A stretch of DNA of 64,000 bases, taken from the NCBI GenBank assembly GCA_963782515.1, contig CAWAJY010000006.1:349988-413987 (forward strand), written 5' to 3'. Every line of letters begins with the position of its first letter. The stretch's first letter is position 1. The notes under the pieces were generated by a model. That model searched no databases, was not told the DNA's origin, and saw only the letters and a list, made by a program, of their open reading frames with translations. The position numbers and the translations under genes were made by a program. The stretch comes from an uncultured Actinomycetes bacterium. Its GTDB lineage: Bacteria > Actinomycetota > Thermoleophilia > Solirubrobacterales > 70-9. Below are positions 25,958 through 44,760 of the stretch, one piece after another.

Positions 25958-26006
25958 GTTGATGGGCCGAAAACCGGACATATAGACGGGTTTTCGGCCC
26001 ATCAAC
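25958..26006 (-). terminator. perfect 18-bp hairpin with AT-rich loop between the CoA-transferase stop and the SDR start
   Basis: gttgatgggccgaaaacc (25958-25975) pairs with ggttttcggcccatcaac (25989-26006). Loop ggacatatagacg. Overlaps the stop codon at 26002-26004. Confidence 0.5.
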
Positions 26007-27629: not shown

Positions 27630-27670
27630 CCCCGCGCGCCGGTTCCCGGATCGGGAGCCGGCGCGCGGGG
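27630..27670 (+). terminator. GC-rich hairpin after the SnoaL-like gene
   Basis: ccccgcgcgccgg (27630-27642) pairs with ccggcgcgcgggg (27658-27670), with inner cccg/cggg pairing. No U tract. Confidence 0.45.
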
Positions 27671-27681
27671 GTGCGCGGGGA

Positions 27682-28099
27682 GGGACGGGCCGGAGGAAGC
27701 CGGCGCCCGAGGTGAGGGACGCAAGGGCTGGCGGCGAGCGCGGCCGTCTCGGCCACGGCCCTGGCCGGCTGTGGCCGCGGCCGAGACGGCCGGGTATGAA
27801 AGCGGCGGAGGAACCGTGACGTCGATGAGGGAGACGCCACGAAGTCCACACTTCCTCCCGGGTTCTTCCACTGTCCGACGCCGCCGCCGGCAACCCTTAG
27901 ACCTTGGTAGCCCTGTGGGCTACCAAGGTCTAAGGGTTGGGTTCCGGCCCATCGAGGCAATCACGGGAGTCCGGACTTCGTGCCGTCCCTGTGCCCGTTG
28001 TTTCACGAACCCCTCACGTCCTGGGCGTCTCATGGCGGTCCTGGCAAGCTGTGACAGCCATGAGACGCCCAGGACCGATCTCGGACGGCCGGAGCGGCC
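27682..28099 (+). repeat. mosaic hairpin repeat, locus G (type I: M1-M2-core fragment-M3-M4-truncated M5)
   Basis: M1 27682-27741. M2 27742-27791. M3 27894-27936 (loop ctgtg). M4 28018-28075 with an inverted loop (ctggcaagctgt). The M5 stub 28082-28099 runs into the stop codon of the RibBA-like gene. Confidence 0.85.
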
Positions 28100-29187
28100 T
28101 AGATCGCGGTGTCGACGCAGCGGGAGCCCGAGCGCCTGCGGGGAGCGGTGCGGGGGCGGGCCACCTCGACGCCGCGCTCGCGCAGTGGGGCTGCCTGGGC
28201 GGGGTCGAGGGGGAGGACCGAGGCCGGTGCGAGCTCGTCGAGGGTGGCGGCGGCCAGGTCGAAGGTGCGGGGGTCCTCCGGGTCGACATCGCGAAGGTGG
28301 ATGAGGATCCCGGCCTCGGCGCGGGCGAAGCGTCGCAGGAGGGCGACCAGGCTGCTCTCGCCGGTCGGGGCGAGGGTGGTGATGAGGTCGTCGATCGGCG
28401 AGGAGGCGCGGATCGCCAGGGGCACCTCCCGGCGACCCTCGACCTCGCCGCGGACCAGCGCCGCGTGCGCCTCGCCGGTCACCTCGTTGGTCAGGCTGAC
28501 CGCGGTGAAGGCCCCGTGCTGGGTGACGACCCTCCGGCGCTCGGTCGCCCGGACCGGCCGCTCGGCCGCGATCCGGCGGGCGGCGACCTCGGTGACCGTG
28601 ACCAGGGGCAGGTGGCGCTCGGCGGCGGTGGCGCGGACCTCGGCCGCGCTCGCGGTCCGACCGGCCTCATCGAGCATCGCGCAGATCGCCGCCGCCCCGG
28701 TGCCACCGGCGAGCCGGACCAGATCGACGGCCGCCTCGGGCGCCCCGCGCGCGGCGAAGACGCCCGCGTCGGCGGCGATCAGCGGCGGCACGTGGCCGGG
28801 GACCACGAGGTCGGAGGACCGCGTCGCCGGGTCGGCGACGACCCGCGCGGTGTTCGCCCGCTCGGCCGCCGAGATCCCGGTCGTCGTCCCCACCCGCGCG
28901 TCCACCGACGCCGCGATCCGCCGCGCCCGACCGCCGGCCGCCGGCCGCCGGCTCCCGATCGGGGAACCAGCGTGCGCGGTGCCGGTGCGGGGCTGCTGCT
29001 CGGGGAGGTTCAGCTCACCGGCGCGGCCGGCGGCGAGGACGACGGAGAAGATCCCGCCGCCCGCGTCGAGCATCGCGACGACGTCCTCGGTGCTCGTGCC
29101 GCGGGCGTCGCGGAGGAGGTGGCCGACGCCCTCGTCGTCAAGCAGGACCACGATCTCACCGCGGGCGATGGCCTCGATCGCCGTCAC
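28099..29187 (-). CDS. RibBA-like protein (DHBP synthase / GTP cyclohydrolase II fold) with degenerate catalytic motifs
   Basis: 362 aa, GTG start in a GTGA overlap with the crotonase stop. Retains VPGHVPPL and EAAVDLVRLAG. The acidic DEDRENEGD loop is replaced by LDDEGVGHLL. The GCH-II Cys cluster is absent. Confidence 0.55.
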   Translation of the reverse strand: MTAIEAIARGEIVVLLDDEGVGHLLRDARGTSTEDVVAMLDAGGGIFSVVLAAGRAGELNLPEQQPRTGTAHAGSPIGSRRPAAGGRARRIAASVDARVGTTTGISAAERANTARVVADPATRSSDLVVPGHVPPLIAADAGVFAARGAPEAAVDLVRLAGGTGAAAICAMLDEAGRTASAAEVRATAAERHLPLVTVTEVAARRIAAERPVRATERRRVVTQHGAFTAVSLTNEVTGEAHAALVRGEVEGRREVPLAIRASSPIDDLITTLAPTGESSLVALLRRFARAEAGILIHLRDVDPEDPRTFDLAAATLDELAPASVLPLDPAQAAPLRERGVEVARPRTAPRRRSGSRCVDTAI

Positions 29188-29963
29188 CGTCCGGTCCAGA
29201 CCGGCGCCCGCTTCTCGGCGAACGCGGCGGCGCCCTCGCGGGCGTCAGCGGACCCCATGATCAGCTGGATGAAATCCTCCTGGCGCGTCCACGCCTCGGC
29301 CTCCGGCAGCTCGACCAGCTCGTCGACGATCTGCTTGGAGACGCGCACCGCGAGCGGCCCGTTGGCGGCGATCTTCGCGGCGAGCGCGAGCGCCTCGGCG
29401 AGCGCGCCACCGTCCTCGCAGACCCGGTTGACCAGGCCGAGCTCGTAACCGCGCCCGGCGTCGACCAGCTCGCCGGTCAGCGCCAGCTCCATCGCCACGT
29501 GGCGGGGAATCCGCCGCGGCAGGCGGAAGAGCGCCCCGGCGCCGGCGATCAACCCCCGCTGCGTCTCCGGGATGCCGAGCCGGGCGCCCCGCCCGGCGAC
29601 GATCAGGTCGCAGGACAGCGCGACCTCGAGGCCGCCGGCGACGGCGAAGCCCTCGACCGCGGCGATCATCGGCTTGGCCGGCGGGCGCTCGCAGATCCCG
29701 GCGAACCCACGGCCGCCCGCGTGCGGCGTCTCGCCGCGCAGGAACGCCTTCAGGTCCATGCCCGAGCAGAACCCCTTGCCGGCGCCGGTGATGACGCCGA
29801 CCCGCAGCTCCTCCTCGGCCTCGAGCCTCTCGACCGCGGCGGCGACGCCCTCGGCCAGCGCGCCGTCCACCGCGTTGCGCGCCTCGGGCCGATTCAGGGT
29901 GACGAGCAGGACCCCGTCGCGCACCTCGGTGAGGACCGCGCCCTCGGCCCCATCGCTCCCCAT
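29184..29963 (-). CDS. enoyl-CoA hydratase/isomerase (crotonase)
   Basis: Start taken at MGSDGAEGAVLTEVRDGVLLVTLNRPEARNA. GAGKGFCSGMDL and AAVEGFAVAGG oxyanion motifs. TGATG overlap with the upstream SDR. Confidence 0.8.
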   Translation of the reverse strand: MGSDGAEGAVLTEVRDGVLLVTLNRPEARNAVDGALAEGVAAAVERLEAEEELRVGVITGAGKGFCSGMDLKAFLRGETPHAGGRGFAGICERPPAKPMIAAVEGFAVAGGLEVALSCDLIVAGRGARLGIPETQRGLIAGAGALFRLPRRIPRHVAMELALTGELVDAGRGYELGLVNRVCEDGGALAEALALAAKIAANGPLAVRVSKQIVDELVELPEAEAWTRQEDFIQLIMGSADAREGAAAFAEKRAPVWTGR

Positions 29964-30805
29964 CACGCGCTCCAGGTCGCGCTGGCACCCATCGTGATGT
30001 CGATCCCGGTGCCGCTGATATGACGACCGCGCTCGGAGGCGAGGAAGACGACGATGTCGGAGACCTCCTCCGGCTCGATCCACGGTTCCGGCAGCTTGTG
30101 CAGCGCTTCCATGATCGTTCCCTCGATGTCCTCGGTCGTCGGGTCCTCGAGGTCGGGGCGGAAGACGTGGTAGAGCGCCTTGTTCTCGAACATCATGTCG
30201 GTCTTCACGCAGGCCGGGCAGATGGCGTTGACGGTGATGTGGTGGGGCGCCAGCTCCAGCGCCGCCGACTTGACCATCCCGATCACGCCCCACTTGGCGG
30301 CGACGTAGTTGCCGAAGTTCGCCATCCCGGCCCGACCGGCGGTCGAGGCGGTGCAGATGATCCGCCCGGAATCCTGCGGGACCATCTTCTGGGCGGCGGC
30401 GCGGAGCGTGTTGAAGACCCCGGTGAGGTTGATGTCGATCACCGTCTGCCACTGCTCGTCGGTCATCTTCGCCAGTTCCTCGGCAGCCCAGATCCCCGCG
30501 TTGCAGCAGGCGACGTCGAGCGAGCCGAACTCTTCGACGGCACGGTCGGCGGCCGCGTCGACCTGGTCGGAGCGGCGCACGTCGACCGTCATCGACACCG
30601 CCTTGACGCCCTCGGCCTCGACCAGCCGGACGGTCTCCGCGAGGTCGCTCGCCGCCGCCATCTTGTAGGGGACGGGCGCGATTTCCTCGTGCAGGTCGGT
30701 GACGACGACGTTCGCGCCCTCGCGCGCCAGCGCCACCGCGTGGGTGCGACCCTGGCCGCGGGCGGCGCCGGTGATCAGGGCGGTCTTTCCTTCCAGCTCC
30801 TTCAT
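29963..30805 (-). CDS. SDR oxidoreductase, carveol-dehydrogenase-like (mycofactocin-coupled subfamily-like)
   Basis: GGAGGAG RBS. MKELEGKTALITGAARGQGRTHAVALAREGANVV...PYKMAAASDLAETVRLVE signature. YVAAK catalytic motif. Confidence 0.8.
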   Translation of the reverse strand: MKELEGKTALITGAARGQGRTHAVALAREGANVVVTDLHEEIAPVPYKMAAASDLAETVRLVEAEGVKAVSMTVDVRRSDQVDAAADRAVEEFGSLDVACCNAGIWAAEELAKMTDEQWQTVIDINLTGVFNTLRAAAQKMVPQDSGRIICTASTAGRAGMANFGNYVAAKWGVIGMVKSAALELAPHHITVNAICPACVKTDMMFENKALYHVFRPDLEDPTTEDIEGTIMEALHKLPEPWIEPEEVSDIVVFLASERGRHISGTGIDITMGASATWSA

Positions 30806-31866
30806 CTCTCCTCCATTTCGGTGAACCAGCGGGCCTCGGCCAGCAGGGCGGGGACGTCGTGCTCGAGCGCCGCCGCGTAGGGGGCGTCGGTGCGGCCGGC
30901 GACGAAGTGGGCGTGGGCCCCCTCGACGATCGCCGCCAGCTTCCAGAAGGCGAGCGCCATGTAGTACGGGAGCGCGGCCAGCGAGCGGCCGCTGCGCTCC
31001 TCGTAGAGCGCCGCCAGCTCGGCCCGGCTCGGCGCCCCCGACACGCGGCTGATCGCCTGCACCCAGGGCATCCCCATCGGCTCGGCGCGCTCGGAGCCCC
31101 AGAAGGCGAGGAAGAGGCCGACGTCGAGCAGCGGGTCGCCGATCGTCGACATCTCCCAGTCGATGATCGCCGCCAGCCGCGGCCGCGGCTCGACCGCGAA
31201 GAGGCAGTTGTCGACGTGGAAGTCGCCGTGGAGGATGCCGGGCGGGACGTCGTCGGGGCGGTTCGCCTCGAGCCACTCGGCAACCGGCTCGAAGTCGGCG
31301 AGCTCCCGGTGGCGATAGCGGTCGAGCTGCTTGCGCCAGCGCGGCACCTGGCGGGCGAGGAAGTCCTCGGGACGGCCGAAGTCCCCGAGCCCCAGGGCGC
31401 GCCAGTCGAGCGTGTGCAGGTCGGCCAGCGCGGTCGCGACCTGCGCGCCGACCGCCCGCACCGCGGCGCCCGGGTCCGCGGCCCAGGCCGCCGGCAGCTC
31501 GTCGCCGAGCGAGGTCCCCTCGACCTCCTCCATCAGCAGGAAGGGAGCCTCGGGGACGGACTCCTCGGTACACAGCCCGCGTGGCGCCGGGACCGGGACC
31601 GCGGTCGGGGACAGTGCCGCCAGCACCCGCTCCTCGCGCCCGACGTTGTGGGCCGAGGAATCGATCGTCGCCCGCGGCGGACGCCTCATCACCAGGCGCT
31701 CGGCCCCGGCGCTGAGCAGCATCGTCTCGTTGGAGTTGCCGCCCGCCAGCGACCGCAGGTCGTAGGGACCCTCGATCCCGGCCTCGGCCAGCCATGCCTG
31801 GAGCGCCGCGCTCGCGGTGCCCGGACCCGTCGCGACGGCTGCCGGCCGTCTCCCCTCGCTACCCAT
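30802..31866 (-). CDS. APH-like phosphotransferase (ACAD10/11 kinase-domain / LvaA-like family)
   Basis: Start taken at MGSEGRRP. GGNSNET, RRPP...SAHNVGRE, HGDFHVDN and IDWEMSTIGDPLLD motifs. The stop abuts the SDR start. Confidence 0.75.
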   Translation of the reverse strand: MGSEGRRPAAVATGPGTASAALQAWLAEAGIEGPYDLRSLAGGNSNETMLLSAGAERLVMRRPPRATIDSSAHNVGREERVLAALSPTAVPVPAPRGLCTEESVPEAPFLLMEEVEGTSLGDELPAAWAADPGAAVRAVGAQVATALADLHTLDWRALGLGDFGRPEDFLARQVPRWRKQLDRYRHRELADFEPVAEWLEANRPDDVPPGILHGDFHVDNCLFAVEPRPRLAAIIDWEMSTIGDPLLDVGLFLAFWGSERAEPMGMPWVQAISRVSGAPSRAELAALYEERSGRSLAALPYYMALAFWKLAAIVEGAHAHFVAGRTDAPYAAALEHDVPALLAEARWFTEMEER

Positions 31867-31981
31867 GGCCGCATCTTCCCCGCGTCCGCCCGGCGCACCC
31901 GCCGGCCCGCCGCGGCACCTTTGGAGTTCTCTCCAACCCCTCTCCGCCGCCCCCCGGCCGGCGCGCCATAAGGTGGCGCCG

Positions 31982-33259
31982 ATGGCGTGGGACTTCTCCA
32001 CCGACCCCGAGTTCGAGGCGCAGCTCGCCTGGATGCGCGACCTCGTCCGCGAGGAGGTCCTGCCCCTGGAGACGCTCGGCCTCGACTTCCCCACCTACCG
32101 GCGCGCGATCGCGCCGCTGCAGCGGCGGGTCAAGGAAAAGGGCCTCTGGGCCGCCCACCTGCCGCCGGATCTGGGCGGCCAGGGCCTCGGCCAGGTGAAG
32201 CTGGCGCTGATGCACGAGATCCTCGGCGCCACCGACTACGCGCCGCCGGTCTTCGGCAACCAGGCGCCCGACTCGGGCAACTCGGAGCTGATCGCGGTCG
32301 CGGGCACCGACGAGCAGAAGGCCCGCTGGATGGCGCCGCTGCTGGCGGGCGAGCTGCTCTCCGCCTTCACGATGACCGAGGAGGGCACCGGCTCGGACCC
32401 GACGCAGCTGAAGACCGCCGCCGTCCGCGACGGCTCCGACTGGGTCCTCGACGGGACCAAGTGGTTCATCTCCAACGCCGACAAAGCCGACTTCCACATC
32501 GTCATGGCACTGACCGACCCGGAGGCCGACCCGCACCGCCGCATGTCGATGATCATCGTCCCCGCCGACGCCGCCGGGATCACCGTGCGCGACCTCGGGG
32601 TGATGAACGACCCGGAGGTCCGCAACCCGATCCACACCCACTCCGAAGTGACCTTCGAGGGGGTCCGGGTCCCGGCCGAGAACCTGCTCGGCGAGCGCGG
32701 CGGCGCCTTCGCCCTGGCCCAGACCCGGCTCGGCCCCGGCCGCATCCACCACGCGATGCGCTGGCTCGGCGTCTCCCGGCGCGCCTTCGACATGCTCTGC
32801 GAGCGCGCCGTCAGCAAGTCGGTCCACGGCTCGACCCTCGCCGACAAGCAGACGATCCGCAACTGGGTCGCCGACTCGGCCGCCGAAATGCAGGCGGCGC
32901 GGATGATGACCATGCACGCGGCCTGGAAATGCGACCAGGTGGGGCCGAAAGCGGCCCGGAGCGAGATCGCGATGATCAAGTACCACGGGCCGAAGGTCAT
33001 GTACAACGTCCTCGACCGGGCGATCCAGGTGCACGGCTCGCTCGGCTTCTCCTGCGACATGCCGCTGGAGGAGATGTACCGCTACGCGCGGGCATCGCGG
33101 ATCTACGACGGGCCCGACGAGGTCCACCGCGAGAGCGTCGCCCGCCGCATCCTGCGCGGCTACGAGCCGCGCGAGGTGCCGACCGAACACATCCCCACCC
33201 GTCGCGCCGCCGCCCAGGCCCGCTTCGCCGAGCTGCTCGACGCCGCCTCGGTCAGCTGA
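31982..33259 (+). CDS. acyl-CoA dehydrogenase family protein
   Basis: 425 aa with an AAGGTGG RBS. FTMTEEGTGSDP and IYDGPDEVHR family motifs. Divergent from the kinase operon. Confidence 0.85.
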   Translation: MAWDFSTDPEFEAQLAWMRDLVREEVLPLETLGLDFPTYRRAIAPLQRRVKEKGLWAAHLPPDLGGQGLGQVKLALMHEILGATDYAPPVFGNQAPDSGNSELIAVAGTDEQKARWMAPLLAGELLSAFTMTEEGTGSDPTQLKTAAVRDGSDWVLDGTKWFISNADKADFHIVMALTDPEADPHRRMSMIIVPADAAGITVRDLGVMNDPEVRNPIHTHSEVTFEGVRVPAENLLGERGGAFALAQTRLGPGRIHHAMRWLGVSRRAFDMLCERAVSKSVHGSTLADKQTIRNWVADSAAEMQAARMMTMHAAWKCDQVGPKAARSEIAMIKYHGPKVMYNVLDRAIQVHGSLGFSCDMPLEEMYRYARASRIYDGPDEVHRESVARRILRGYEPREVPTEHIPTRRAAAQARFAELLDAASVS

Positions 33260-33260
33260 G

Positions 33261-34433
33261 GTGGGCGCCGCCGCCGGGCCGCTCGCCGGGGTCCGCGTCC
33301 TCGACCTGAGCAGGCTCCTCCCCGGCGGCTTCTGCACCGCGACGCTCGGCGACCTGGGCGCCGAGGTGGTGAAGATCGAGCAACCGGGGCAGGGCGACTA
33401 CATGCGCTGGGGCGATCCCAAGTTCGGCGCCGAGTCGGCGGCCAGCTGGACGATCGACCGCAACAAGCGCTCGGTCTCGATCGACCTGAAGAACCCCGAC
33501 GGGGTGCGGGCGCTGCTCGACCTCGCCGCCCGCGCCCAGGTCGTGGTGGAGAGCTTCCGCCCGGGCGTCGTCGACCGCCTCGGAGTCGGCTACGACGCGG
33601 TCCGCGCGGTCAACCCGGCGATCGTCTACTGCTCGATCACCGGCCACGGCCAGGACGGCCCGCTGCGCCTCGCCCCTGGCCACGACATCAACTACGTCGG
33701 CCGCGCCGGCATCCTCAGCATCAGCGGGCCCGCCGACGGGCTCCCCGCCGTCGCCGGCGTCCAGATCGCCGACCTCGGCACCGGCGGGCTCTTCAGCGCC
33801 GTCGGCATCCTCGCCGCCCTCTACCGCGCCCGCGAGACCGGCGAGGGGGACCACATCGACATCTCGATGACCGACGGTGCGCTGGCCTGGCTGTCGATCC
33901 ACCTCGAGGACTACTTCGCCTCCGGCGTCGACCCCGGCCGCGAGGGGATGGTCCTGAACGGGCGTTTTCCCTGTTACAACGTCTACCGCTGCGCCGACGG
34001 CCGCCACATCACCGTCGGCGCGCTCGAGGAGCAGTTCTGGGAGGTCCTCTGCGAGAAGACCGGCCGACCCGACCTCCTCCCCACCCAGTACGACCCAGAC
34101 GCGATCCCGCTGTGGCGCGAGGTCTTCGCCGCCAGGGCCCGCGACGAGTGGGTCGAGCTGCTCGCCGACGGCGCCTGCGTCGGCCCGGTCAACGACTTCG
34201 CCGAGGCGAGCGCCGAACCGCAGGTCCTCGCGCGCGGCATGGTGATCGACCAGGAGCACCCCGAAGCGGGGACGGTGCGCCAGATCGGCTCGCCGATCAA
34301 GCTGCGCGACCACCCGGTCGGGGTGCGCACGCCGGCGCCGAAGCTCGGCGCCGACACGCGGGCGCTGCTCGCCGAGGCGGGCTACCCGGAGGAGCGGATC
34401 GGCTCGCTGCTCGCGGACGGCGCCGTCGCCTGA
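33261..34433 (+). CDS. family III CoA-transferase (CaiB/BaiF)
   Basis: 390 aa, GTG start 2 nt after the ACAD stop. LAGVRVLDLSRLLPGGFCTATLGDLGAEVVKIE N-terminus. Confidence 0.8.
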   Translation: MGAAAGPLAGVRVLDLSRLLPGGFCTATLGDLGAEVVKIEQPGQGDYMRWGDPKFGAESAASWTIDRNKRSVSIDLKNPDGVRALLDLAARAQVVVESFRPGVVDRLGVGYDAVRAVNPAIVYCSITGHGQDGPLRLAPGHDINYVGRAGILSISGPADGLPAVAGVQIADLGTGGLFSAVGILAALYRARETGEGDHIDISMTDGALAWLSIHLEDYFASGVDPGREGMVLNGRFPCYNVYRCADGRHITVGALEEQFWEVLCEKTGRPDLLPTQYDPDAIPLWREVFAARARDEWVELLADGACVGPVNDFAEASAEPQVLARGMVIDQEHPEAGTVRQIGSPIKLRDHPVGVRTPAPKLGADTRALLAEAGYPEERIGSLLADGAVA

Positions 34434-36295
34434 GCGACGCCGACCTGGTCGCCGTCGCTGATCCGCCCGACCAGGCGCAGGATCAGCAGTCCGAGCTGCA
34501 GGGTGAGCTGGTCGTCGGCATCGGCGGCGACGTCGAGGTGGGTGATCTCGCGGATCCGCCCGAGCCGGTAGCGGATCGTGTTCTCGTGGACGTCCAGCAG
34601 CTCGGCCGAGCGGCGGACGCTGCGCGAGGCGGCGAAGAACATCTGCACGGTCGAGAGGAGGTCCTCCATGCCGGGGTCGAGGAGCTCGCCCAGGGTGTCG
34701 CGGGCGAAGCGCTCGGCGTCCTCCTTGCTGGTGCCGGAGAGCAGCAGCCGGGCGGCGCCGATGTCGGCGCTGGCCAGCACCCGGTAGGCGTCGGGCGGGC
34801 AGAAGACCGAGATGCAGCGCGACACCTGCTGCGCCTCGCGGAACGACGACGGGTACTGCGTCGCTTCGTCGCAGATCCCCGAGATCGCCACCGAGGCGAC
34901 CTCCTTGGCGCCCAGCGCGGTGAGCGCGTCGGCGGCGATCGCCTTGGCCTCGTCGATCCCCTTCTCGCCGTCGCGGCTCGCGAGTTCGATCACCGCGGCG
35001 ACGCCGTCCTCGACCCCGACCACCAGCGGGTTCGCCTCCGGATGGTTCTCCTGGAGCGCCTTGAAGACGCGCCCGGAGGGGAGCGGCGCCCGCTTCTCCC
35101 CTGTCGCGAACAGCATCACCGCGTGCGGCGCGGTCAGGTGGAGCCCGTGGAAGTGGGCGCGGCGCAGCAGCGAGGCGGGGTCGTCGGTGCCGACGATCAG
35201 GTCGCGGGCGAGGGTCTCCTGGGCGCGCATCTCGGCGTCGGCGGCGCGCCGCTCGGCGCTCATCTCGAGCGCCACGATCGTCCCCGCGCGGCGGGCGACG
35301 ATGCGGTCGTGGGCGTTGAACCAGCCGCCCTGCTCGATCACCACGAGGTAGCCCCAGGCGTCGCTGCCGACCATGATCGGCGCCGCCATCATCCGCTTCG
35401 CCAGCTTGGTCCGCCCGGCCGCGTCGATCACCGCCGGGTTGCGGCCCTGGATCTTGGTGATCACCCCGGCCAGATCCGGTTCGTGGCGCATCCGTGCCAG
35501 CACGCGGTCGAGCACCGCGCCGCCGTCGGCGTCGTTGCCGGCTGTCGCCAGCGGCCGCATCCCCGCGTCGACCACCATCGTCGGCTTGCCGGTCAGTTCG
35601 GCGACCGCCTCGGTGATCTCGTGCAGGTTGGCGCCTTTGAGGACCAGCGTCGCCAGCCGTTCCTCGATCGCCGCGGCGGTGCGCAGCAGCTTGTTCTGCC
35701 GCTCCACCGTCTGCAGCGAGGTGCGCAGCTCCGAGGTCAGCTGGGCGTGGGAGATCGCGATCGCCGCCAGGTTGGCGAAGGTCCCGCAGAGCGACTGCTC
35801 GTTCTCGGAGTAATCGTGCGGCTGGTCTTCGTTGTCGAGGAAGAGCAGCCCGACGACCTGGCCTTTGCGGACCATCGGCACGCCGAGCATCGTCTGGACG
35901 TTCCACTCGAGCATCGTCGAGCGCACCGGGCGTGGATCCGACTGGGCGTTGACGATCAGCACCGGCCGCTTTGTGGTGAGGATCTCGCGGGTGAAGCCGT
36001 CGGCCTCGATCCCCGCCGTGAGGCCCTTGATCGCGGCGTCGATGTTGCGGTCGGCATGGCCGACCTGGCCACGGAAGAGCCCGGTGCGTTCGTCCCGCAG
36101 GTAGACGCTGCATCGACGGACGTCGAGCAGCTCGCAGATCCGCATCGCGACGATGTGCAGGAGCGCGTCGAGGGCGACGTGCTCGGTGATCGCCCCGGAG
36201 ATTTCGTTGAAGGCCTCGACGACCTCCGGGAATCCGGCGGGCCGACGGCCCCCCTTCACCTTGTCGGACCTGCCGACGAGCTCATCGACGGCCAT
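34382..36295 (-). CDS. GAF-domain PucR/CdaR-family transcriptional regulator
   Basis: 637 aa. N-terminal GAF-like region. C-terminal PucR HTH (LDVHENTIRYRLGRIREIT). Its 3' end overlaps the convergent CoA-transferase by 52 nt. Confidence 0.75.
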   Translation of the reverse strand: MAVDELVGRSDKVKGGRRPAGFPEVVEAFNEISGAITEHVALDALLHIVAMRICELLDVRRCSVYLRDERTGLFRGQVGHADRNIDAAIKGLTAGIEADGFTREILTTKRPVLIVNAQSDPRPVRSTMLEWNVQTMLGVPMVRKGQVVGLLFLDNEDQPHDYSENEQSLCGTFANLAAIAISHAQLTSELRTSLQTVERQNKLLRTAAAIEERLATLVLKGANLHEITEAVAELTGKPTMVVDAGMRPLATAGNDADGGAVLDRVLARMRHEPDLAGVITKIQGRNPAVIDAAGRTKLAKRMMAAPIMVGSDAWGYLVVIEQGGWFNAHDRIVARRAGTIVALEMSAERRAADAEMRAQETLARDLIVGTDDPASLLRRAHFHGLHLTAPHAVMLFATGEKRAPLPSGRVFKALQENHPEANPLVVGVEDGVAAVIELASRDGEKGIDEAKAIAADALTALGAKEVASVAISGICDEATQYPSSFREAQQVSRCISVFCPPDAYRVLASADIGAARLLLSGTSKEDAERFARDTLGELLDPGMEDLLSTVQMFFAASRSVRRSAELLDVHENTIRYRLGRIREITHLDVAADADDQLTLQLGLLILRLVGRISDGDQVGVAQATAPSASSEPIRSSG

Positions 36296-36468
36296 GCGTC
36301 CACTCTCCTCCGGCGCCCCCGGCCCGAATCGTGCCAGGCCCGGATCCCTGCTCCCAGAGCGGAGGATAGCCCTTTGTGCCGATTATCTCCAGTGCCGTTT
36401 GTCGGGTCCCACAGTCCACCGCGCCGCCGCCCGCCACCGTTGGTGGCATTGCTGATTTCGTTCTCAGC

Positions 36469-36966
36469 GTGAGCCAGGCGACCTTCGACAGCCCCCACTT
36501 CCGCAAGGTGATGGGACACCTCCCGACCGGGGTCAGCATCGTCACCGGCCACGGCGAGGAAGGGCCCGCGGGGCTTGCCGTCGGCTCCTTCATGTCGGTC
36601 AGCCTGGAGCCGCCGCTGATCGCGGTCAGCCCGGCGCTCACCTCGACCAGCTGGCCCGCGATCCGCGAGACCGGCGGCTTCTGCGTCAACGTCCTGGGCG
36701 AGGCCCAGGCCGAGCTGGCGCGCCGCTTCGCCGTCTCCGGCGGGGACAAGTTCGCCGATCTCGGGTGGCGCCGCGGACCCTCCGGGGCGCCGATCCTCGC
36801 CGGCGCGGTGGCCTGGATCGACTGCCGGACCGAGTCCGAGCAGGTCGCCGGCGACCACTGGCTCGTCCTCGGCCGGGTGCTGGAGCTCGACGTCGAGGAG
36901 CCCGGCGACCCGCTGATCTTCCACCGCGGCGCCTTCGACCGCTTCCGCGCGACCGAGCGGGAGTAG
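36469..36966 (+). CDS. flavin reductase (HpaC-like, FMN-binding split barrel)
   Basis: GTG 36469 gives 165 aa. FRKVMGHLPTGVSIVT...GLAVGSFMSVSLEPPL signature. Confidence 0.75.
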   Translation: MSQATFDSPHFRKVMGHLPTGVSIVTGHGEEGPAGLAVGSFMSVSLEPPLIAVSPALTSTSWPAIRETGGFCVNVLGEAQAELARRFAVSGGDKFADLGWRRGPSGAPILAGAVAWIDCRTESEQVAGDHWLVLGRVLELDVEEPGDPLIFHRGAFDRFRATERE

Positions 36967-36991
36967 GCGGGTCCACTTCCCTGAAGGACCC

Positions 36992-37795
36992 TCACGTACT
37001 GGGCGTCTCGTCCGACTTCCCGACTCCCGCCGCGGCGACGTCGAGGCCGAGGTAGGCGGAGCGGACCTGGTCCTCGTCGATCACCTTGTCGGCGGTGCCC
37101 TCGACGATGATCTGGCCGCGCTCGAGGACGTAGGCACGGTCCGACATTCTCAGCGTCAGCATCGCCTGCTGCTCGACGATCATCACCGTGATGCCGGTGT
37201 CGCGGAGCTTCTCGAAGGATTCGAACATCTCCTTGGTCACCAACGGCGCCAGGCCCAGGGAGGGCTCGTCGAGGAGGAGCAGCGAGGGGCGGGCCATCAT
37301 CCCGCGGCCGACCGCGACCATCTGCTGCTGGCCGCCGGAGAGGTCCGCGGCGCGGCTGCCCATCCGCTCGCCGAGGACCGGGAAGAGGTCGACCACGCGT
37401 TCCAGCTCCTCCGCGCGGTTGGAGCGCTGCCGGCGGTGGGCGTAGGCGCCGAGGATCAGGTTCTCGCGCACGGTCATCTCGCCGAACAGCTGGCGACCCT
37501 CGGGGACGAGGACGACGCCCTTGCCCGCCATCGCCTCGGGCGGCACCTTGGTGACGTCCTCCTCGCCGAGCGTGATCTTTCCGGCGGTCGGCCGCAGGAG
37601 GCCGACGATGGTCTTCAGCAGGGTCGACTTCCCGGCGCCGTTGGTGCCGAGGACGGCGACGATCTCCCCCGCGTCCACCTGCACCGAGAGGTTGCGCAGG
37701 ACCGAGACGGCCCCGTAGCCGGAGTCCACCCCCTCGACCCGGAGGATCGTCCTTGCCGCCGTCGCCGTGCTGCTCGCCCCGCTCTCCACCGTCAT
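36992..37795 (-). CDS. ABC transporter ATP-binding protein, LivF-like
   Basis: GTNGAGKST Walker A, LSGGQQQ signature and LLLDEPS Walker B. The last ~7 codons derive from a repeat-module (M4) remnant. Confidence 0.85.
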   Translation of the reverse strand: MTVESGASSTATAARTILRVEGVDSGYGAVSVLRNLSVQVDAGEIVAVLGTNGAGKSTLLKTIVGLLRPTAGKITLGEEDVTKVPPEAMAGKGVVLVPEGRQLFGEMTVRENLILGAYAHRRQRSNRAEELERVVDLFPVLGERMGSRAADLSGGQQQMVAVGRGMMARPSLLLLDEPSLGLAPLVTKEMFESFEKLRDTGITVMIVEQQAMLTLRMSDRAYVLERGQIIVEGTADKVIDEDQVRSAYLGLDVAAAGVGKSDETPST

Positions 37796-40602
37796 ACCTC
37801 CACCGTCGTTCCCAGGTATGCCTCGATCACGGTGGGGTCGGCGCCGACCGCGGTCGGCGTGCCCTCCGAGATCTTGGCCCCCTCCTCCAGCACGAAGACC
37901 TTGTCGGCGATCGACATCACCATGCTCATGTCGTGCTCGACCAGGAGCACCGCGACCTCGAGATCGCGGATCGTCTGCACCACCGCGGCCAGCGACTTGG
38001 TCTCGGTGCCGTCGAGGCCCGCCGCGGGCTCGTCGAGGAGCAGGACGCAGGGGTCGGTGGCGAGCGCGCGCGCCAGCTCGGCGAGTCGCTGCTTGCCGAC
38101 CGGCAGGTCCATCGCCACCGTGTCCGCGTCGTCGGCGAGCCCGACGAAGTCGAGCCAGGCGCGCGCCTCGGTCTCGGCCGCCGCTTCCTCGCGGCGCGAG
38201 CGCGGGCCGCGGAAGACGGCGCCGAGCAGGCCGGAGCGGCGAAAGCGCTGGCGGGCGAGGATGACGTTCTCCAGCGCGGTCAGCCCTTCGAAGAGCCGCG
38301 GGGTCTGGAAGGTGCGGGCGACGCCGGACTGGCCGATATCGGCGGGGCGCAGGCCGACCACCTGCCGTCCCATCACGGCGATCCTGCCGTCGGTCGGCAC
38401 GATCGCCCCGGAGAGCATGTTGATCACGGTCGACTTGCCCGCCCCGTTGGGTCCGATCAGCGCCGTGATCTCACCCGAGTCGAGGGTGAAGTCGACGTCG
38501 GAGACCGCAGGCAGCTTGCCGAAGCGCTTGGTCAATTCCTCGACCTCGACCAGGCTGAGGCCGGCGCGGGCGTGACCGTTCCCGTTCGACGGCGCGGCGG
38601 TGATTGCCGCGGCGGGCGCCGAACCTTCCTTGGCGGGAGGGAGGCTCGGGCTTTTCGCCACCGCTTTGCGGATGTACTCCGGGAGCGCCGTCAGCCCGTC
38701 GCGGAAGACGAGAACGAAGAAGATCAGGAAGAGGCCGCTGAGGATGATCGTGTACTGCTGGGTCGAGGCGCCGGCGGAGGAGCTGAACGATTCCTGGACC
38801 GCGTACTGCATCCCGCCGACCACCGCCGCGCCGGCAGCCGCGCCGAACGGGGAGGCGACGCCGCCGACGATCACGTAGGTCAGCAGCGTGATCGTGAAGG
38901 TGACGTCCCAGCTCGTCTGGGTGGCGAAGTTGCCGTAGATCGCCCACAAGACGCCGGCCAGCGAGGCCATCGCGGCGCCGAGCACGAGGATCCGGACCTT
39001 CAGCTTCGAGACGTCGAGGCCGAGGCTCTCGGCCGCCTCCTCGTCGCGCCCCACCGCGCGCAGCGCCAGCCCGGTCTGCGACACCCAGATGTTGCGGGCG
39101 ATCAGCAGGCAGACGCAGAGGAGGCCCATGCCGAGGTAGAAGAACTGCTTGGCGTCGATGAATTCGGTGCCGAAGAGGTGCATGATCGGCAGCCCGGTGA
39201 TGCCCTGCGGGTACTGCTGGGCGGCGACGACAAGCGCGATCAGCTGGATCGCCAGCGTCGCCAGCGCCAGGTTGAACCCGGACAGTCGCACCGTCAGCCG
39301 GCCGATCGCGTAGGCGAGGACGATCGAGCCGGCGACGGCGACGATCGCGGCGGGGAGCAGACCCCAGCCGCTCTTCACGGTGAGGATCGCGACCCCGTAG
39401 CCGCCGATGATGTAGAAGACCGCGTGGCCGAGGCTGAGCTGCCCGGCGAGGCCGAGGATCAGGCCCAGGCCGGTCGCCCCGACGGCGCCGAGGACGATGT
39501 AGGTGGCGGCCGACTGGAAGCCGAGGTCGCTGCTCAGCGAGGGGACGAAGAAGGCCGCGGCGAGCAGCACGACCGGCAGCAGCGAGCGCGCCCCGAGGCC
39601 GTCGAAGACGCCGCGCGGCTGGGGCTTCGCGCCCTCCAGGCGCTCGACGAAGGCGGCGGTGCGCTCGCGGATCCGTTGCTGCAGGGCGACGACCTCCTCG
39701 TCGGTTTCCCCCTTGACCCGGGAGAGCTTCGACATCCGCTGGAGGACGCCGTCGCGGCCGATCAGATCGCGGCCGAGGAGGAACACGATCAGGGTGCCGT
39801 AGACGATCGCCATCCGGTATTCGGAGGAGATCTTGCCCGCCGAGAGCGACTCCAGCATGCCCAGCGCGAGGCCGAAGAGGACGGCGCGGCCGGGACTGGT
39901 GAAGCCCGCCAGGGCGGCGGCGATGAAGGCGACCAGGGTGACTTCCAGGCCCGCGTTCCAGCTGGCCGAGGTGAGCGGCACGGTGACCGCCGCGATCACC
40001 CCGGCGAGCGCGCCCGCGAGGACGAAGGCCATCATCGAGGTCGAGCCGATGCGGATGCCGTAGAGGCGGGCGGCGACCGGGTTGATCGCGCTCGCCCGCA
40101 TCGCCCGGCCGAGGTCGGTGAAGCGGAAGAGCGAGACGATCGCGATCAGGCAGATGATGGTGCCGCCCCAGACGTAGAGGGTCTGGTAGCTGAGGTGGGC
40201 GCCGAGGAGGACGAACGAGCCCGAGCTGAAGGCGGGGACGCTTTTGGTGTATTCGCCCCAGATCGCCAGCGCCACTCCCTGCAGCACCGCCCCGACCCCG
40301 AGCGTCGTGATCAGCAGGCCCAAGGGCCCGAGCTTGCCGCGCACCGGCGCGATCGTCAGCCGCTCCTGCAGCAGGGCGATGCCGGCGACCGCGGCGATCG
40401 TCACCAGGATCGCCGGCGGCACGCTCCAGCCGCCTGCCCCGGCGGTCCCGTACATGATCAGCCCGCCGAACATCACGTAGTTGCCGAGCGCGAAGTTGTA
40501 GACCCCGGTGACGTTGACGATCAGGACGATCCCCAACGCGACCAGAGCGTAGATGCAGCCGAGGGAGAGGCCCGACAGTACGTACTGGACGTATTCGCTC
40601 AC
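37792..40602 (-). CDS. fused LivH-LivM-LivG polypeptide (two permease domains + ATPase)
   Basis: A single uninterrupted frame. GTG 40602 (VSEYVQYVLSGLSLGCIYALVALG, LivH-like). A second permease domain starts around LPVVLLAAAFFVPSL. The C-terminal ATPase has GPNGAGKST, LPVGKQR and LLLDEPAAG. GTGA overlap with the upstream gene. Confidence 0.7.
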   Translation of the reverse strand: MSEYVQYVLSGLSLGCIYALVALGIVLIVNVTGVYNFALGNYVMFGGLIMYGTAGAGGWSVPPAILVTIAAVAGIALLQERLTIAPVRGKLGPLGLLITTLGVGAVLQGVALAIWGEYTKSVPAFSSGSFVLLGAHLSYQTLYVWGGTIICLIAIVSLFRFTDLGRAMRASAINPVAARLYGIRIGSTSMMAFVLAGALAGVIAAVTVPLTSASWNAGLEVTLVAFIAAALAGFTSPGRAVLFGLALGMLESLSAGKISSEYRMAIVYGTLIVFLLGRDLIGRDGVLQRMSKLSRVKGETDEEVVALQQRIRERTAAFVERLEGAKPQPRGVFDGLGARSLLPVVLLAAAFFVPSLSSDLGFQSAATYIVLGAVGATGLGLILGLAGQLSLGHAVFYIIGGYGVAILTVKSGWGLLPAAIVAVAGSIVLAYAIGRLTVRLSGFNLALATLAIQLIALVVAAQQYPQGITGLPIMHLFGTEFIDAKQFFYLGMGLLCVCLLIARNIWVSQTGLALRAVGRDEEAAESLGLDVSKLKVRILVLGAAMASLAGVLWAIYGNFATQTSWDVTFTITLLTYVIVGGVASPFGAAAGAAVVGGMQYAVQESFSSSAGASTQQYTIILSGLFLIFFVLVFRDGLTALPEYIRKAVAKSPSLPPAKEGSAPAAAITAAPSNGNGHARAGLSLVEVEELTKRFGKLPAVSDVDFTLDSGEITALIGPNGAGKSTVINMLSGAIVPTDGRIAVMGRQVVGLRPADIGQSGVARTFQTPRLFEGLTALENVILARQRFRRSGLLGAVFRGPRSRREEAAAETEARAWLDFVGLADDADTVAMDLPVGKQRLAELARALATDPCVLLLDEPAAGLDGTETKSLAAVVQTIRDLEVAVLLVEHDMSMVMSIADKVFVLEEGAKISEGTPTAVGADPTVIEAYLGTTVEV

Positions 40603-41117
40603 TGCTCGCCCAGCCCCTGTCCGGCCTGCTCGGCGAGCCGCGCCGCCGCCTCGGTGAAGACGCCCGCGTTGCCGTCCTGCCAGGCGCAGTGGAGCGTGCG
40701 GTGCTCGATCTGCCAGCCCGCGTCGGTGCGGCGCAGGCGGTCCTCGTAACGACCTCCCACCAGGTAGGTGTTGCCACCCGCCGGACCGGCGAGGAGGTGC
40801 TGGGCCTGGAAGTAGCAGCTCGCCGTCGCGCGCTCGCCTTCGACGGTGACGCGCGGGTTGGCGATCAGATGTTGGCTCGCGTCGAGCCCGGAGAGGACGC
40901 CGCCGCAGAGCTCGACGATCGCGTCGCGTCCCTCGTTGACCCCACCGAACTCGAGGTAGTCGGCGATGCCGTCCTCGGTGAAGGTGGCGCGCAGCAGGTC
41001 CCAGTCGCGGGTGTCCAGTGCGGTCGCGTACTGGTAGAGGAGGTCGGTGATCGCGAGGCGATCCTCGACCTCGGCGATCCTGGCCTCGAGGCTGGTGTCG
41101 GAAGTGGTGGTGTTCAT
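40599..41117 (-). CDS. SnoaL_4/NTF2-like protein
   Basis: 172 aa. EDRLAITDLLYQYATALDTRDWDLLRATFTED pattern typical of the SnoaL_4 family. Embedded in the ABC operon. Confidence 0.65.
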   Translation of the reverse strand: MNTTTSDTSLEARIAEVEDRLAITDLLYQYATALDTRDWDLLRATFTEDGIADYLEFGGVNEGRDAIVELCGGVLSGLDASQHLIANPRVTVEGERATASCYFQAQHLLAGPAGGNTYLVGGRYEDRLRRTDAGWQIEHRTLHCAWQDGNAGVFTEAAARLAEQAGQGLGEQ

Positions 41118-41214
41118 CCGTTCCTCCGCGGCTCCGGATCGCCACCACCCGAGGCCCGTCAGGGCCCCGGGTGGTGAGATCGGAGTCGCCGATCGTGTTA
41201 CTAGGTCGGCGCGA

Positions 41215-42609
41215 CTATCCGGCGTGTGGGCCGGTGGCTTTGGCGCCGGCGGGGTCCGCCCCCGGCGCGAGCACGTATTCCGGTTCTCCCTTCTTGTTCA
41301 CTTTGATCGTCATGTCGACGTAGGCTTCTTCCCAGGTACCGGTGAGCCGGTGGCTTTCCGGGCTGGTCTTGACGAGGCCGTGGCTGGTGCGCAGGCTCCC
41401 GTCCATTTCCTGCATCGCTTCGACGATCGAGTCGCGGGTGACTTCCTTACCTTCTTCTTCCAGGTGTTCGACCGCCCAGGCGTAGGTGTTCACCGCGTCG
41501 TAGCCGTAGATCGAGAACAGCGCGAAGGGTTCGCCGGGGAAATACTTTTCGAATTTTTCGACGTATTCTTCGCACCACTTCTTGGCCGGATCGCTCTTCG
41601 CGATGATTTCCGGCGCGCGGCACTTGTGCCCGCCGAAGACGACGCCTTCGGCGTTCTTGCCGGCCGCTTCGGCCAGTGCCGGAACCGTCAGCCACTGCTC
41701 GGCGATCACCGGTTTGGAGTCCATCCCGAGCTGCTTGGCGGCTGCCAACGCGTTCGGGTTGAGCGACTCGATGTAATAGATTTCCGCGCCGCTTTCCTTC
41801 ATTTTGGTCAGCTGCGGGGTGACTGCTTCGACCGAGTCGGCCGAGCCTGCTTCCTCCACGTCGACGACTTCGCAGCCCAGCTGTTCGCACCCTTCTTCGA
41901 TCGCTTCCGGGATCTGCTGGGAGAAGTCGGTTTCGTAGTGGAGGATCGCGACTTTCTTACCCTTGAGGTTGGTTCCGTTGAATTCACGGCCGAACGCCTT
42001 CGCGTATTCGGGCCCGTGTTCGTTCATGTAGACGAGCGACGACGACGCGTATTCTTTGCCCGCCGAGTTCTCGAATATGTATTTGGTGACCGGCGTGTCG
42101 ATCTTGTCGTTACCGCTTGCCGCGATCAGCGCCAGCTTCACCCGTTCCGACTGTTCGCGGATCGCGAGCGATCCGGTCGCACCGAGGAACGCCCCGATGA
42201 TCTTGCTTTCGGCCCCGGCCTGTTGGTAGGCGCTTGCCGCGCCCTGCGGGGTGCCGCCGGTCTTGAAGATCTTCAGGTCGATTTCTCGACCGTTGACCCC
42301 ACCGGCTTTGTTGATTTCTTCGGTCGCGATCTTCATGCCCTTCATGAAGTCCGGACCGCCCTCGGCGACTTCACCTTCCAGACCGGCGATGCCGATCGGT
42401 TCGGTCGAGCCGCTCGAGCTTTCGCTTTCGGCGGCGGCGTTTTCGGTTTCCTTGGCTTCCCCGGACGGTTCCGACGAGCTCGACGAGCTGCTGCCGCCAC
42501 CGCCGCAAGCCGCGAGCAGAACGCTGAAGGCCGCGAGCAGGAGCGCGAGGCACACAATGAAGGCAACCCGGTGTCGTGGCCCGCGCCGGCGGGTCCTCTC
42601 GTACTGCAT
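41215..42609 (-). CDS. ABC transporter substrate-binding lipoprotein (Leu/Ile/Val-binding family)
   Basis: 464 aa with a GGAGA RBS. Lipobox LLAAC followed by a G/S-rich linker. Type I periplasmic-binding fold pattern. Confidence 0.8.
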   Translation of the reverse strand: MQYERTRRRGPRHRVAFIVCLALLLAAFSVLLAACGGGGSSSSSSSEPSGEAKETENAAAESESSSGSTEPIGIAGLEGEVAEGGPDFMKGMKIATEEINKAGGVNGREIDLKIFKTGGTPQGAASAYQQAGAESKIIGAFLGATGSLAIREQSERVKLALIAASGNDKIDTPVTKYIFENSAGKEYASSSLVYMNEHGPEYAKAFGREFNGTNLKGKKVAILHYETDFSQQIPEAIEEGCEQLGCEVVDVEEAGSADSVEAVTPQLTKMKESGAEIYYIESLNPNALAAAKQLGMDSKPVIAEQWLTVPALAEAAGKNAEGVVFGGHKCRAPEIIAKSDPAKKWCEEYVEKFEKYFPGEPFALFSIYGYDAVNTYAWAVEHLEEEGKEVTRDSIVEAMQEMDGSLRTSHGLVKTSPESHRLTGTWEEAYVDMTIKVNKKGEPEYVLAPGADPAGAKATGPHAG

Positions 42610-42841
42610 TGAATCTCCTCTCTGAAGTGGCCCACCGGGTCCCCCCCGGCGCTGGCAATCGCGAACTTAGGAGGTGCCGATTGCGCCAGGCGCCCGAGTT
42701 CTCGCGAGCGTTGTCGATGTCTCCAATCCGCGCCCCCTCTCCACAGGCCGATCCGGTGACGCCGCGGCCGCCGCGCGCTACGTTCGGTGAGGGTCGGCAC
42801 GCCGCGCGCGAAACCGAGACGACGAGAGGAGAAAGCCGCAG

Positions 42842-44464
42842 ATGAAGAGCACGATGTCGGCGATGCCGCTGACGACGAGGTTGATCTACGACCACGGCAG
42901 GACGGTCCACCACCGCAGCCTCGTCACCACCTACGCGGCCGACGGCTCCTCCACCTCCCAGACCTACGCCGAGGTCGCCGCGCGCGCCGACCGGCTCGCC
43001 GCCGGCCTGCAGGCGATGGGCATCGTGCCGGGCGATCGCGTCGGCACCTTCTGCTGGAACCACGGCGACCACCTCGCCACCTACTTCGGCGTCCCCTGCA
43101 TGGGGGCGGTGCTCCACACGGTGAATCTGCGCCTCTTCCCCGAACAGGTCGCCTTCGTCGTCAACCACGCCGAGGACCGGGTGCTGATCGTCGACCAGAC
43201 GCTGGTCGACCTGCTGGCGCCGATCGCGGACTCGCTCGCCACGGTCGAGCGCTTCCTCGTCATCGGCGGCGACGGCGCCGCCCTGGGCGAGCGGGCGATG
43301 CCCTTCGAGGACGCGCTGGCGGCGCCCGAGGTCGAGCCCGGGTGGCCGGAGCTCGACGAGTCCGCGGCCGCCTCCATCTGTTACACGAGCGGCACCACCG
43401 GCGACCCGCGCGGGGTCGCCTACGGACATCGCTCGACCTTCGTCCACTCGATGGCCCAGTGCGCGACCAACGCCTTCGGCATCGGCCAGGACGACACGAT
43501 CATGCTGATGGTCCCGATGTTCCACTCGAACGCCTGGGGCCTCCCCTACTCGGGCTGGATGTCGGGCGCCGACTTCGTGATGCCGCAGGCGACCCTCGAC
43601 GCGGCCTCGCTCGCGCGGATGTTCAAGGAGCGCCGGCCGACCTTCACCGCGGGCGTGCCGACCCTGTTCAACGACCTGCTGAACCACACCGATCCCGAGC
43701 CGGTCGACCTCTCCACCCTGCGGGTCGCGGTCTGCGGCGGCTCGGCGGTGACCGGCGCGCTGATCGAGGCGATGCGCGCCCGCGGCGTGCCGATGCTGCA
43801 GGGCTGGGGGATGACGGAGACGAGCCCGCTCTGCGCCCTCTCGCACCCGCCCAAGCACACGCCGCCGGAGGAGGACAGCTACTGGCGCTCGAAGAGCGGC
43901 CGGCCCTCCTCGGCCGGGATCGAACTGCGGATCGTCGACGACGCGGGCGCCGAGCTGCCCTGGGACCGGGAGTCGGTCGGTGAGATCGAGGTCCGTGGAC
44001 CGTGGGTGACGACCTCCTACTACGGGATCGACACGCCGGAGAAGTTCGACCAAGGCTGGCTGCGCACCGGCGACGTCGGCTACGGCGACCCGGAGCGCTT
44101 CGTCCAGCTGACCGACCGCGCCAAGGACGTGATCAAGTCGGGCGGCGAGTGGATCTCCTCCCTCGACCTCGAGGACGGCCTCGCCTCCCACCCCGACGTG
44201 CTCGAGGTCGCGGTGATCGGCGTCGCCGACGAGCGCTGGGAGGAGCGCCCGCTCGCCTGCCTCGTCCTGCGCCAAGGCGCCGAGCTCGACCCGGCGGCCC
44301 TCGCCGACCACCTCGGCTCCCAGGTCGCCCGCTGGTGGATCCCCGAGCGCTGGTCGGCCCTCCCCGAGATCCCCAAGACGAGCGTCGGCAAGGCCGACAA
44401 AAAGGCCCTCCGCGCGGCCTACGTCGCCGGCGAGATCAAGGTCGTGAGCCCGACGCGGAGGTGA
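42842..44464 (+). CDS. AMP-dependent acyl-CoA ligase (FadD-like)
   Basis: 540 aa. YTSGTTGDPRG AMP-binding motif, GWGMTET, and a C-terminal PKTSVGKADKK. Confidence 0.85.
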   Translation: MKSTMSAMPLTTRLIYDHGRTVHHRSLVTTYAADGSSTSQTYAEVAARADRLAAGLQAMGIVPGDRVGTFCWNHGDHLATYFGVPCMGAVLHTVNLRLFPEQVAFVVNHAEDRVLIVDQTLVDLLAPIADSLATVERFLVIGGDGAALGERAMPFEDALAAPEVEPGWPELDESAAASICYTSGTTGDPRGVAYGHRSTFVHSMAQCATNAFGIGQDDTIMLMVPMFHSNAWGLPYSGWMSGADFVMPQATLDAASLARMFKERRPTFTAGVPTLFNDLLNHTDPEPVDLSTLRVAVCGGSAVTGALIEAMRARGVPMLQGWGMTETSPLCALSHPPKHTPPEEDSYWRSKSGRPSSAGIELRIVDDAGAELPWDRESVGEIEVRGPWVTTSYYGIDTPEKFDQGWLRTGDVGYGDPERFVQLTDRAKDVIKSGGEWISSLDLEDGLASHPDVLEVAVIGVADERWEERPLACLVLRQGAELDPAALADHLGSQVARWWIPERWSALPEIPKTSVGKADKKALRAAYVAGEIKVVSPTRR

Positions 44465-44475
44465 GGGTCCGGGTC

Positions 44476-44760
44476 GTCTGAGGCTGGCGCCCGGAGGCGC
44501 AAGGGACGCAAGGGCTGGCGGCGAGCGCCGCCGGCAACCCTTAGACCTTGGTAGCCCACAGGGCTACCAAGGTCTAAGGGTTGGGTTCCGGTCCATCGAG
44601 GCAATCACGGAAGTCCGGAGTTCGTACCGTCCCTGTGCCGGATGCTTCACGAACCCCTCACGTCCTGGGCGTCTCATGGCGGTCACAGCCAGCCAGGACC
44701 GCCATGAGACGCCCAGGACCGATCTCGGACGGGTGCCGCGGCCGCGAAGCATGCCGTCCC
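44476..44760 (+). repeat. mosaic hairpin repeat, locus H (type I lacking M2)
   Basis: M1 44476-44527. M3 44538-44580 (loop cacag, flipped relative to locus G). M4 44662-44719 (23-bp perfect stem). M5 44726-44760. Confidence 0.85.

Follow-up and report, generated by a model that had tools for sequence, protein, structure and literature searches.

Template switching during DNA synthesis is said to be able to turn a hairpin loop around, mutations of this kind having reportedly been described by Löytynoja and Goldman in 2017. Hairpins in two orientations are also familiar from the termini of parvoviruses and poxviruses, where the two forms are inverted complements and the ends of the molecule are resolved at each round of replication, giving flip and flop in a ratio of about 1:1. 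In the hairpins of ribosomal RNA (rRNA), 69 events classed as "loop inversion only" were attributed to template switching, with examples that include Actinobacteria and Firmicutes (Mönttinen & Löytynoja, 2022; PMC8794818). Recurrent small inversions of plastid hairpin loops are termed flip-flop mutation in that literature (PMC6824564), the small or "minute" plastid inversions going back, as cited there, to Kelchner & Wendel (1996) and Kim & Lee (2005). In E. coli template-switch mutagenesis at quasipalindromes, following the model of Ripley, has been established experimentally by the Lovett laboratory (PMC7202029). Here we describe two inverted hairpin loops in a stretch of 64,000 nucleotides (the window) from contig CAWAJY010000006.1 of an uncultured Actinomycetes bacterium. 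They lie in two copies of an interspersed repeat, locus G and locus H, whose modules M2, M3 and M4 are palindromes that form hairpins.

The M3 hairpins of the two loci share their arms and also their flanks, which are asymmetric (gccggcaaccc... on the left and ...gggttgggttccgg on the right). The loop, when taken as 5 nt, is ctgtg in G (27913-27917) and cacag in H (44557-44561), exactly three substitutions (tgt to aca) giving the reverse complement. The flanks of M4 are likewise the same in both loci (ttcacgaacccctcac on the left, cgatctcggacgg on the right), while the loop of the G copy, ctggcaagctgt (28041-28052), which lies between a left arm at 28018-28040 and a right arm at 28053-28075, stands against acagcc(a/t)gccag in copies A, D, E and H. 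This loop has 7 mismatches in 12 positions to the forward consensus and only one to the reverse complement of the consensus, and it is the exact reverse complement of a variant, acagcttgccag, found at C2:166254. In both hairpins the changed segment has kept its length and is bounded on both sides by the 23-bp inverted arms, and in an alignment of nine copies the sequence beyond the arms is unchanged and collinear. An earlier note on this DNA had drawn attention to both loop differences within collinear flanks, and both are present in the assembly. DNA fold energies were −28.5 kcal/mol for either form of M3, −28.2 for M4 of G and −32 for M4 of H, with z below −7.5 against shuffled sequences for all four hairpins (−9.8 for M3 of G). 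By pattern searches the window holds three copies of M3 and five of M4, where none would be expected by chance.

The orientation of loops relative to flanks was surveyed throughout the genome (G000; 4.51 Mb in six contigs, 70% GC, with the window in contig 6). Copies of M4 were located by pairs of seeds and their orientation was taken from the six adjoining nucleotides (cctcac on the left or gtgagg on the right). In 97 of the 98 copies the loop agrees with the flanks, 96 being concordant automatically and one more, C6:355267, after a misclassification caused by a 1-nt indel had been recognised; the sole exception is the M4 of locus G. There are 14 real copies of M3, and among the nine that are close and collinear the loop is ctgtg in all except that of H. 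A shared arm variant of M3, GGTTACC, always occupies the same arm with respect to the flanks, so that asymmetry of the arms is normally kept in register with the flanking sequence. No flip was seen among about 100 copies of M2 (91 were concordant automatically and the others by inspection): the 17 flagged automatically were all found on inspection to be flank variants or misclassifications of the M4 type, and a check with exact patterns gave 43 normal copies and no flipped one. M2 and M4 are related hairpins, one towards each end of the element and inverted with respect to each other, and their loops, CTGGCNGGCTGT and ACAGCCNGCCAG respectively, are oppositely oriented in all paired copies. The survey thus bears out M4 of G and M3 of H as flips, with one in each locus and not both in G. 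A blind screen of the genome for perfect hairpins with a stem of at least 10 bp and a loop of 3-16 nt gave 847, among them 25 arm families with at least three copies, and recovered the M3 of H. We also noticed a diverged M3-like copy at C1:522762-522792, with the loop cacag and a right flank (gggttgggc) resembling the forward one, which may be a second flip of M3 though it is too diverged for a call.

As the census of the family shows them to be the odd copies, M4 of G and M3 of H would be the derived states. The spacers between M3 and M4 differ at several positions between G and H; the loci are therefore not recent duplicates of one another, and each flip must have arisen separately. No other site in the genome has the loop ctggcaagctgt together with its arm variant, which argues that the loop was not copied from another locus. 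Compared with a clean flip of the consensus, the M4 of G carries two private changes, G to A in the loop and C to A in the right arm at position 28056, the latter producing the only mismatch in that arm. The change at 28056 completes a small palindrome, GCTGT-G-ACAGC, and one might speculate that it was a secondary templated change.

Inversion of the centre is also seen in a second family of palindromes, which surfaced through the blind screen. It has the form GTTGAY-GGGCCGAAAAC-N15-GTTTTCGGCCC-RTCAAC, where N15 comprises the inner stem and loop, and occurs in 96 copies genome-wide. About 57 of these stand alone in unique flanks, in both orientations, and the unit appears to be mobile by itself. 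Another 18 copies are embedded in the core of the type-II repeat, about 60 nt upstream of M4, where the orientation of the flanks is unambiguous (alignment scores of, for example, 97 against 15 over 2 × 70 nt). The centre of these embedded copies is c-ATATA-g in nine cases and c-TATAT-g in six, and when the asymmetric left flank GAAATGTTGAY was used as the pattern of an independent search, five copies with ATATA and six with TATAT were returned. Exact reverse-complement pairs occur within several variants of the stem (ccgtc..gacgg, ctgcc.. and tcc-agatataga-gga versus tcc-tctatatct-gga). In the pair ccgCcatatagAcgg and ccgTctatatgGcgg a mismatch in the inner stem is on opposite arms (C4:623178, ccgCc..gAcgg; C4:1035869, ccgTc..gGcgg), meaning that the inverted segment included part of the stem. 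Such a moving marker is uninformative for M3 of H, where the arms are perfect, and ambiguous for M4 of G. At least four inversion events are needed to account for the 18 embedded copies; the perfect palindromes of this genome therefore undergo inversion of the centre repeatedly.

To look for the loci in other genomes, 2-2.8 kb of DNA around G and H was searched against 40 relatives and five repeat-rich congeners. No orthologous locus was found in these 45, the matches being to repeat modules or to distant paralogous genes; one upstream gene reaches 88-89% identity, with the element absent there. Exact-protein look-ups of the flanking genes and exact-pattern scans of metagenome contigs gave no other assembly of either locus. 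The repeat family is present in 14 of the 151 genomes of the genus that were searched, including this one, and the normal M4 pattern gave 359 matches (79 in this genome, 106 in G115 and 69 in G058, which is a single contig). Among roughly 280 copies of M4 in the 13 congeneric genomes there was no secure flip. A strict pattern for the flipped M4 had no match in the genus, though it also misses the copy in G because of the private loop base; a looser one, for which the copy in G served as positive control, returned that copy and one doubtful copy in G056. The latter (L026; G056:C79:10-49, minus strand) has a flipped loop, ctagcaggctgt, after a normal left flank ctcac, but it lies 10 nt from the end of a contig with its right arm cut off, and may be a genuine flip or else an assembly artefact from fold-back. 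This puts flipped M4 at about 0.3-1% of copies. No M3 was found in five congeners, and a search of Rfam gave no family at the gathering score, only chance microRNA-like matches to the hairpins.

We consider it probable that M4 of G and M3 of H represent two independent and rare inversions of the palindrome centre that took place in situ, by template switching from arm to arm or by recombination between the arms. An exact reverse complement of unaltered length, set between inverted arms and untouched flanks, is the mark by which a template-switch mutation spanning a loop is defined. During replication or repair synthesis the nascent strand would quit its template inside one of the 23-nt arms, re-pair with the complementary arm, either on the other strand or on itself, and copy across the loop. 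A second switch, back inside the other arm, would leave everything between the two points of switching reverse-complemented, at its original length and with the flanks as before. Alternatively, exchange between the short arms that does not depend on RecA would have an identical product. Both the template switch at replication and the fixation of each event in the population are inferred. The flips are by-products of perfect palindromes and not a step in a dedicated flip-flop process, and they are a new instance of a class of mutation already described, in a poorly described repeat family, rather than a new mechanism.

The proposal in the earlier note that an inverted centre within fixed flanks reflects an interaction between the arms at the level of the DNA, through template switching or arm recombination, agrees with this account, while its idea of an active flip-flop does not: with about 1% of M4, 0% of M2 and one copy of M3 flipped, these are rare events and not a 50:50 mixture. 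Nor does it follow, as the note had argued, that cruciforms are extruded from these palindromes in vivo. A strand switch at the replication fork suffices, since it needs only the 23-nt homology of the arms on single-stranded or nascent DNA, and extrusion is not required for these flips. Cleavage of cruciforms yields breaks, not inversions.

Several points weigh against our interpretation. The sequence does not separate template switching from recombination between the arms. Polarity was assigned from the family consensus (97 of 98 copies), not from an outgroup, and for each of the singleton flips the only witness is the assembly consensus. Both flips, out of about 212 M2, M3 and M4 hairpins, fall in type-I (M3-bearing) copies only 17 kb apart; given the window examined the chance of such proximity is about 0.08, which is mildly unexpected and unexplained. 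Finally, the mechanism does not by itself account for the large gap in flip frequency between families of hairpins.

A donor elsewhere in the genome could give a similar result if a short tract were converted from an oppositely oriented copy, the palindromic arms letting the reverse copy align. About 42 reverse-oriented copies of M4 and five of M3 are possible donors, and for M3 of H the product would be the same as that of a flip in place, cacag with perfect arms being present at C4:277349 and C4:1055277. We nevertheless regard such ectopic conversion as unlikely: the combination of ctggcaagctgt with the right-arm A is in no reverse-oriented copy, so that a donor plus two mutations would be needed, and RecA-dependent conversion would have only the short 23-nt arms to work with. 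Such a route would in effect also be a template switch, but one between loci. Somewhat less likely again is an error of assembly or polishing, with the consensus wrong in loop orientation and the real DNA unflipped. The assembly does resemble a metagenome-assembled genome (88% complete, 3.7% contamination), and the flipped M4 of the relative, at a contig end and cut inside an arm, is at a typical site for a fold-back artefact. However, six contigs in spite of about 100 copies of a repeat of 0.3-0.6 kb imply long reads that spanned the 49-58-nt palindromes together with unique flanks, and the two flips lie far from the ends of a contig of 678 kb, which runs through about 20 copies of the repeat. 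Errors of this kind should fall randomly on M2 and M4, but in about 200 other copies loop and flanks agree; the private loop variant of M4 in G could not have been supplied by mis-mapped reads of other copies; and the flipped states of the GTTGAY family are common to several copies and are therefore inherited.

If the hairpins were small mobile units, a palindromic module might have been excised and reinserted, or inserted independently, in reverse at the same site. The 57 or so stand-alone GTTGAY units, found in both orientations, do suggest that this genome has mobile palindromes of about 50 nt. On the other hand, M3 and M4 are never found alone in unique flanks, a scarless replacement at the same nucleotide would be required, and inversion in the GTTGAY family can cover only the inner stem and loop and not the whole unit, all of which makes reinsertion very unlikely. 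The least probable explanation, and one to which we give hardly any weight, is programmed processing of the hairpins by an enzyme, through nicking and refolding or a site-specific invertase, such that the loops flip-flop in living cells. The likeness to flip/flop termini and invertons is only formal, though the almost invariant 12-nt loop might suggest binding by a protein. Against it, the frequency of flips is about 1% or less in M2 and M4 and not near 50%, the hairpins are internal chromosomal sites and not molecule ends, and the genome has no detectable Y1 HUH transposase or TnpB. With serine and tyrosine invertases, 3 or 12 nt of loop leaves too little DNA between the arms for recombinase synapsis. 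A rolling-hairpin origin of flip and flop was similarly rejected, as the sites are inside the 678-kb contig with only 1 of 98 M4 and 0 of about 100 M2 copies flipped.

Since no genes for Y1 (PF01797) or TnpB (PF07282) were detected, an origin of the repeat from IS200/IS605 or RAYT was also rejected. A six-frame search of the genome for RAYT, the Y1 HUH transposase, had no match where the same profile was positive in 6 of 14 reference genomes, though with the genome 88% complete its absence is not proven; TnpB likewise gave no match in the genome.

The M4 consensus is a perfect palindrome, and its arms and loop vary to different extents. In the arms 2.3% of sites differ from the consensus, as against only about 0.5% at 11 of the 12 positions of the loop (44685-44696 in the window, for example), which suggests that the conserved loop may be a recognition motif, CTGGCNGGCTGT. 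The central position of the loop is free (T in 43 copies, A in 41 and G in 4); the balance of T and A was considered as a sign of flipping and rejected, there being no inverted repeat centred on it. One flip in 98 M4 hairpins is, to an order of magnitude, the substitution frequency per site, so that a whole loop is reversed (about 1 in 100 M4 hairpins) roughly as often as any particular base is substituted. Uncompensated changes are spread over both arms, with 13 distinct types on the left and 17 on the right (30 in total). The mismatch in the M4 of G had been taken to be on the side expected for a flipped hairpin, but with a symmetric consensus and uncompensated changes on both arms it is not diagnostic, and the same GACAGCC right arm is present in the unflipped copy at C4:2302763.

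Two features of the M4 arms may be mentioned in their own right. Five distinct compensated variants (26 copy-pairs) keep the palindrome perfect, as at 15270-15327 with CATCGCGGTC/GACCGCGATG; these would fit either inheritance within subfamilies or correction of one arm from the other. In the unflipped copy at G000:C4:2302763-2302820 the right arm has GACAGCCAGGAG in place of GACCGCCATGAG, the two changes making it a direct repeat of the loop sequence ACAGCCAGG, and this looks like a templated (misalignment) change.

It is possible, although we are doubtful of it, that flipping is frequent and near-neutral at every perfect palindrome here and that the scarcity of flipped M2 and M4 is due to purifying selection on a loop that is read in a strand-specific manner. 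In favour of this, the GTTGAY family has its two orientations at about 9:6, with at least four events in 18 copies, in the same elements as M2 and M4, and the 12-nt loop of these two hardly varies, which would also fit such selection. Were it true, the loop CTGGCNGGCTGT would be read in one orientation by a putative protein that mobilises or uses the repeats, and the frequency of flips would be a built-in test for functional hairpin loops. An alternative to selection would be the length of the loop, which is 12 nt as against 3-9 nt.

The positions of the elements and hairpins are given in the table below. Locus G sits between convergent genes, one ending at 27609 (+) and the other at 28099 (−), whereas locus H is flanked by two genes on the + strand (42842-44464 and 44886-45929). 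In H the deletion has removed M2 and the core, ...gcgagcgc being joined to cgccggcaaccc. At 44490-44535 the left end of the H element (…ggacgcaagggctggcggcgagcgc) abuts cgccggcaaccc immediately before M3, and the deletion looks like one between short GCCG repeats. A separate GC-rich hairpin, cgcgcgccggttcccgg-atc-gggagccggcgcgcg, is found at 27626-27673, immediately downstream of the stop codon at 27607-27609 and ahead of the repeat element of G; it resembles the stem of a terminator but has no T tract.

Table. Repeat copies and hairpins of the window discussed in the text; orientations are those suggested by the family consensus.
Feature	Position	Strand	Description
Copy of the second (GTTGAY) family	25958..26006 (= G000:C6:375945-375993)		GTTGAT-GGGCCGAAAAC-cggacatatagacgg-GTTTTCGGCCC-ATCAAC
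Locus G	27682..28099	+	Full type-I copy of the interspersed repeat, order M1-M2-M3-M4-tail
M2 of G	27741-27790		Loop ctggccggctgt
M3 of G, probably ancestral orientation	27891..27939		Perfect 23-bp stem, loop TGT 27914-27916
M4 of G, probably derived (flipped)	28018..28075		Only loop/flank disagreement among 98 M4 copies; single mismatch in right arm, A at 28056
Locus H	44490..44760	+	Type-I copy, internally deleted
M3 of H, probably derived (flipped)	44535..44583		Arms and flanks of the G copy, loop ACA 44558-44560
M4 of H, probably ancestral orientation	44662..44719		Perfect 23-bp stem, loop acagccagccag 44685-44696 (12 nt)

In these two loci the inversion of hairpin loops within interspersed repeats of a bacterium can be seen cleanly and with its polarity, and its rate can be estimated. 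A flipped loop appears in an alignment as a cluster of 3-12 apparent substitutions, and would mislead alignments, estimates of divergence and typing based on repeats. Comparison of families that flip often with those that almost never flip offers a cheap test for loops that are read strand-specifically.

Of the systems described, the inversions most resemble the loop inversions attributed to template switching, having a perfect stem and a loop that is the exact reverse complement with length and flanks kept. The cases in PMC8794818, on the other hand, are in rRNA genes and involve mostly 4-nt, partly self-complementary loops of at most 7-8 nt, while the hairpins of this genome are non-coding interspersed repeats with 23-bp stems, and one of the inverted loops is of 12 nt and fully asymmetric. 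With the small inversions of plastids they share a recurrent, homoplastic change of loop orientation between fixed inverted-repeat stems in non-coding DNA, although the plastid cases compare single-copy orthologous loci between species and ours are paralogous copies within one bacterial genome. The E. coli quasipalindromes are similar in being bacterial and in the replication-linked, RecA-independent copying of one arm from the other; the assays there score the correction of arm mismatches rather than inversion of a whole loop, and the present case is known from sequence alone. The two hairpin forms, each the inverted complement of the other, recall the parvoviral and poxviral termini. As a repeat, the element is like REP, BIME and REPIN sequences (PMC3116915, PMC3733652) in its high copy number, its intergenic palindromes and the inverted arrangement of M2 and M4 near its ends. 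The words flip, loop, inversion and reverse complement are absent from those two REPIN papers, and the element differs from a REPIN in being far longer, at 0.3-0.6 kb, and in that no RAYT or Y1 transposase was found in the genome.

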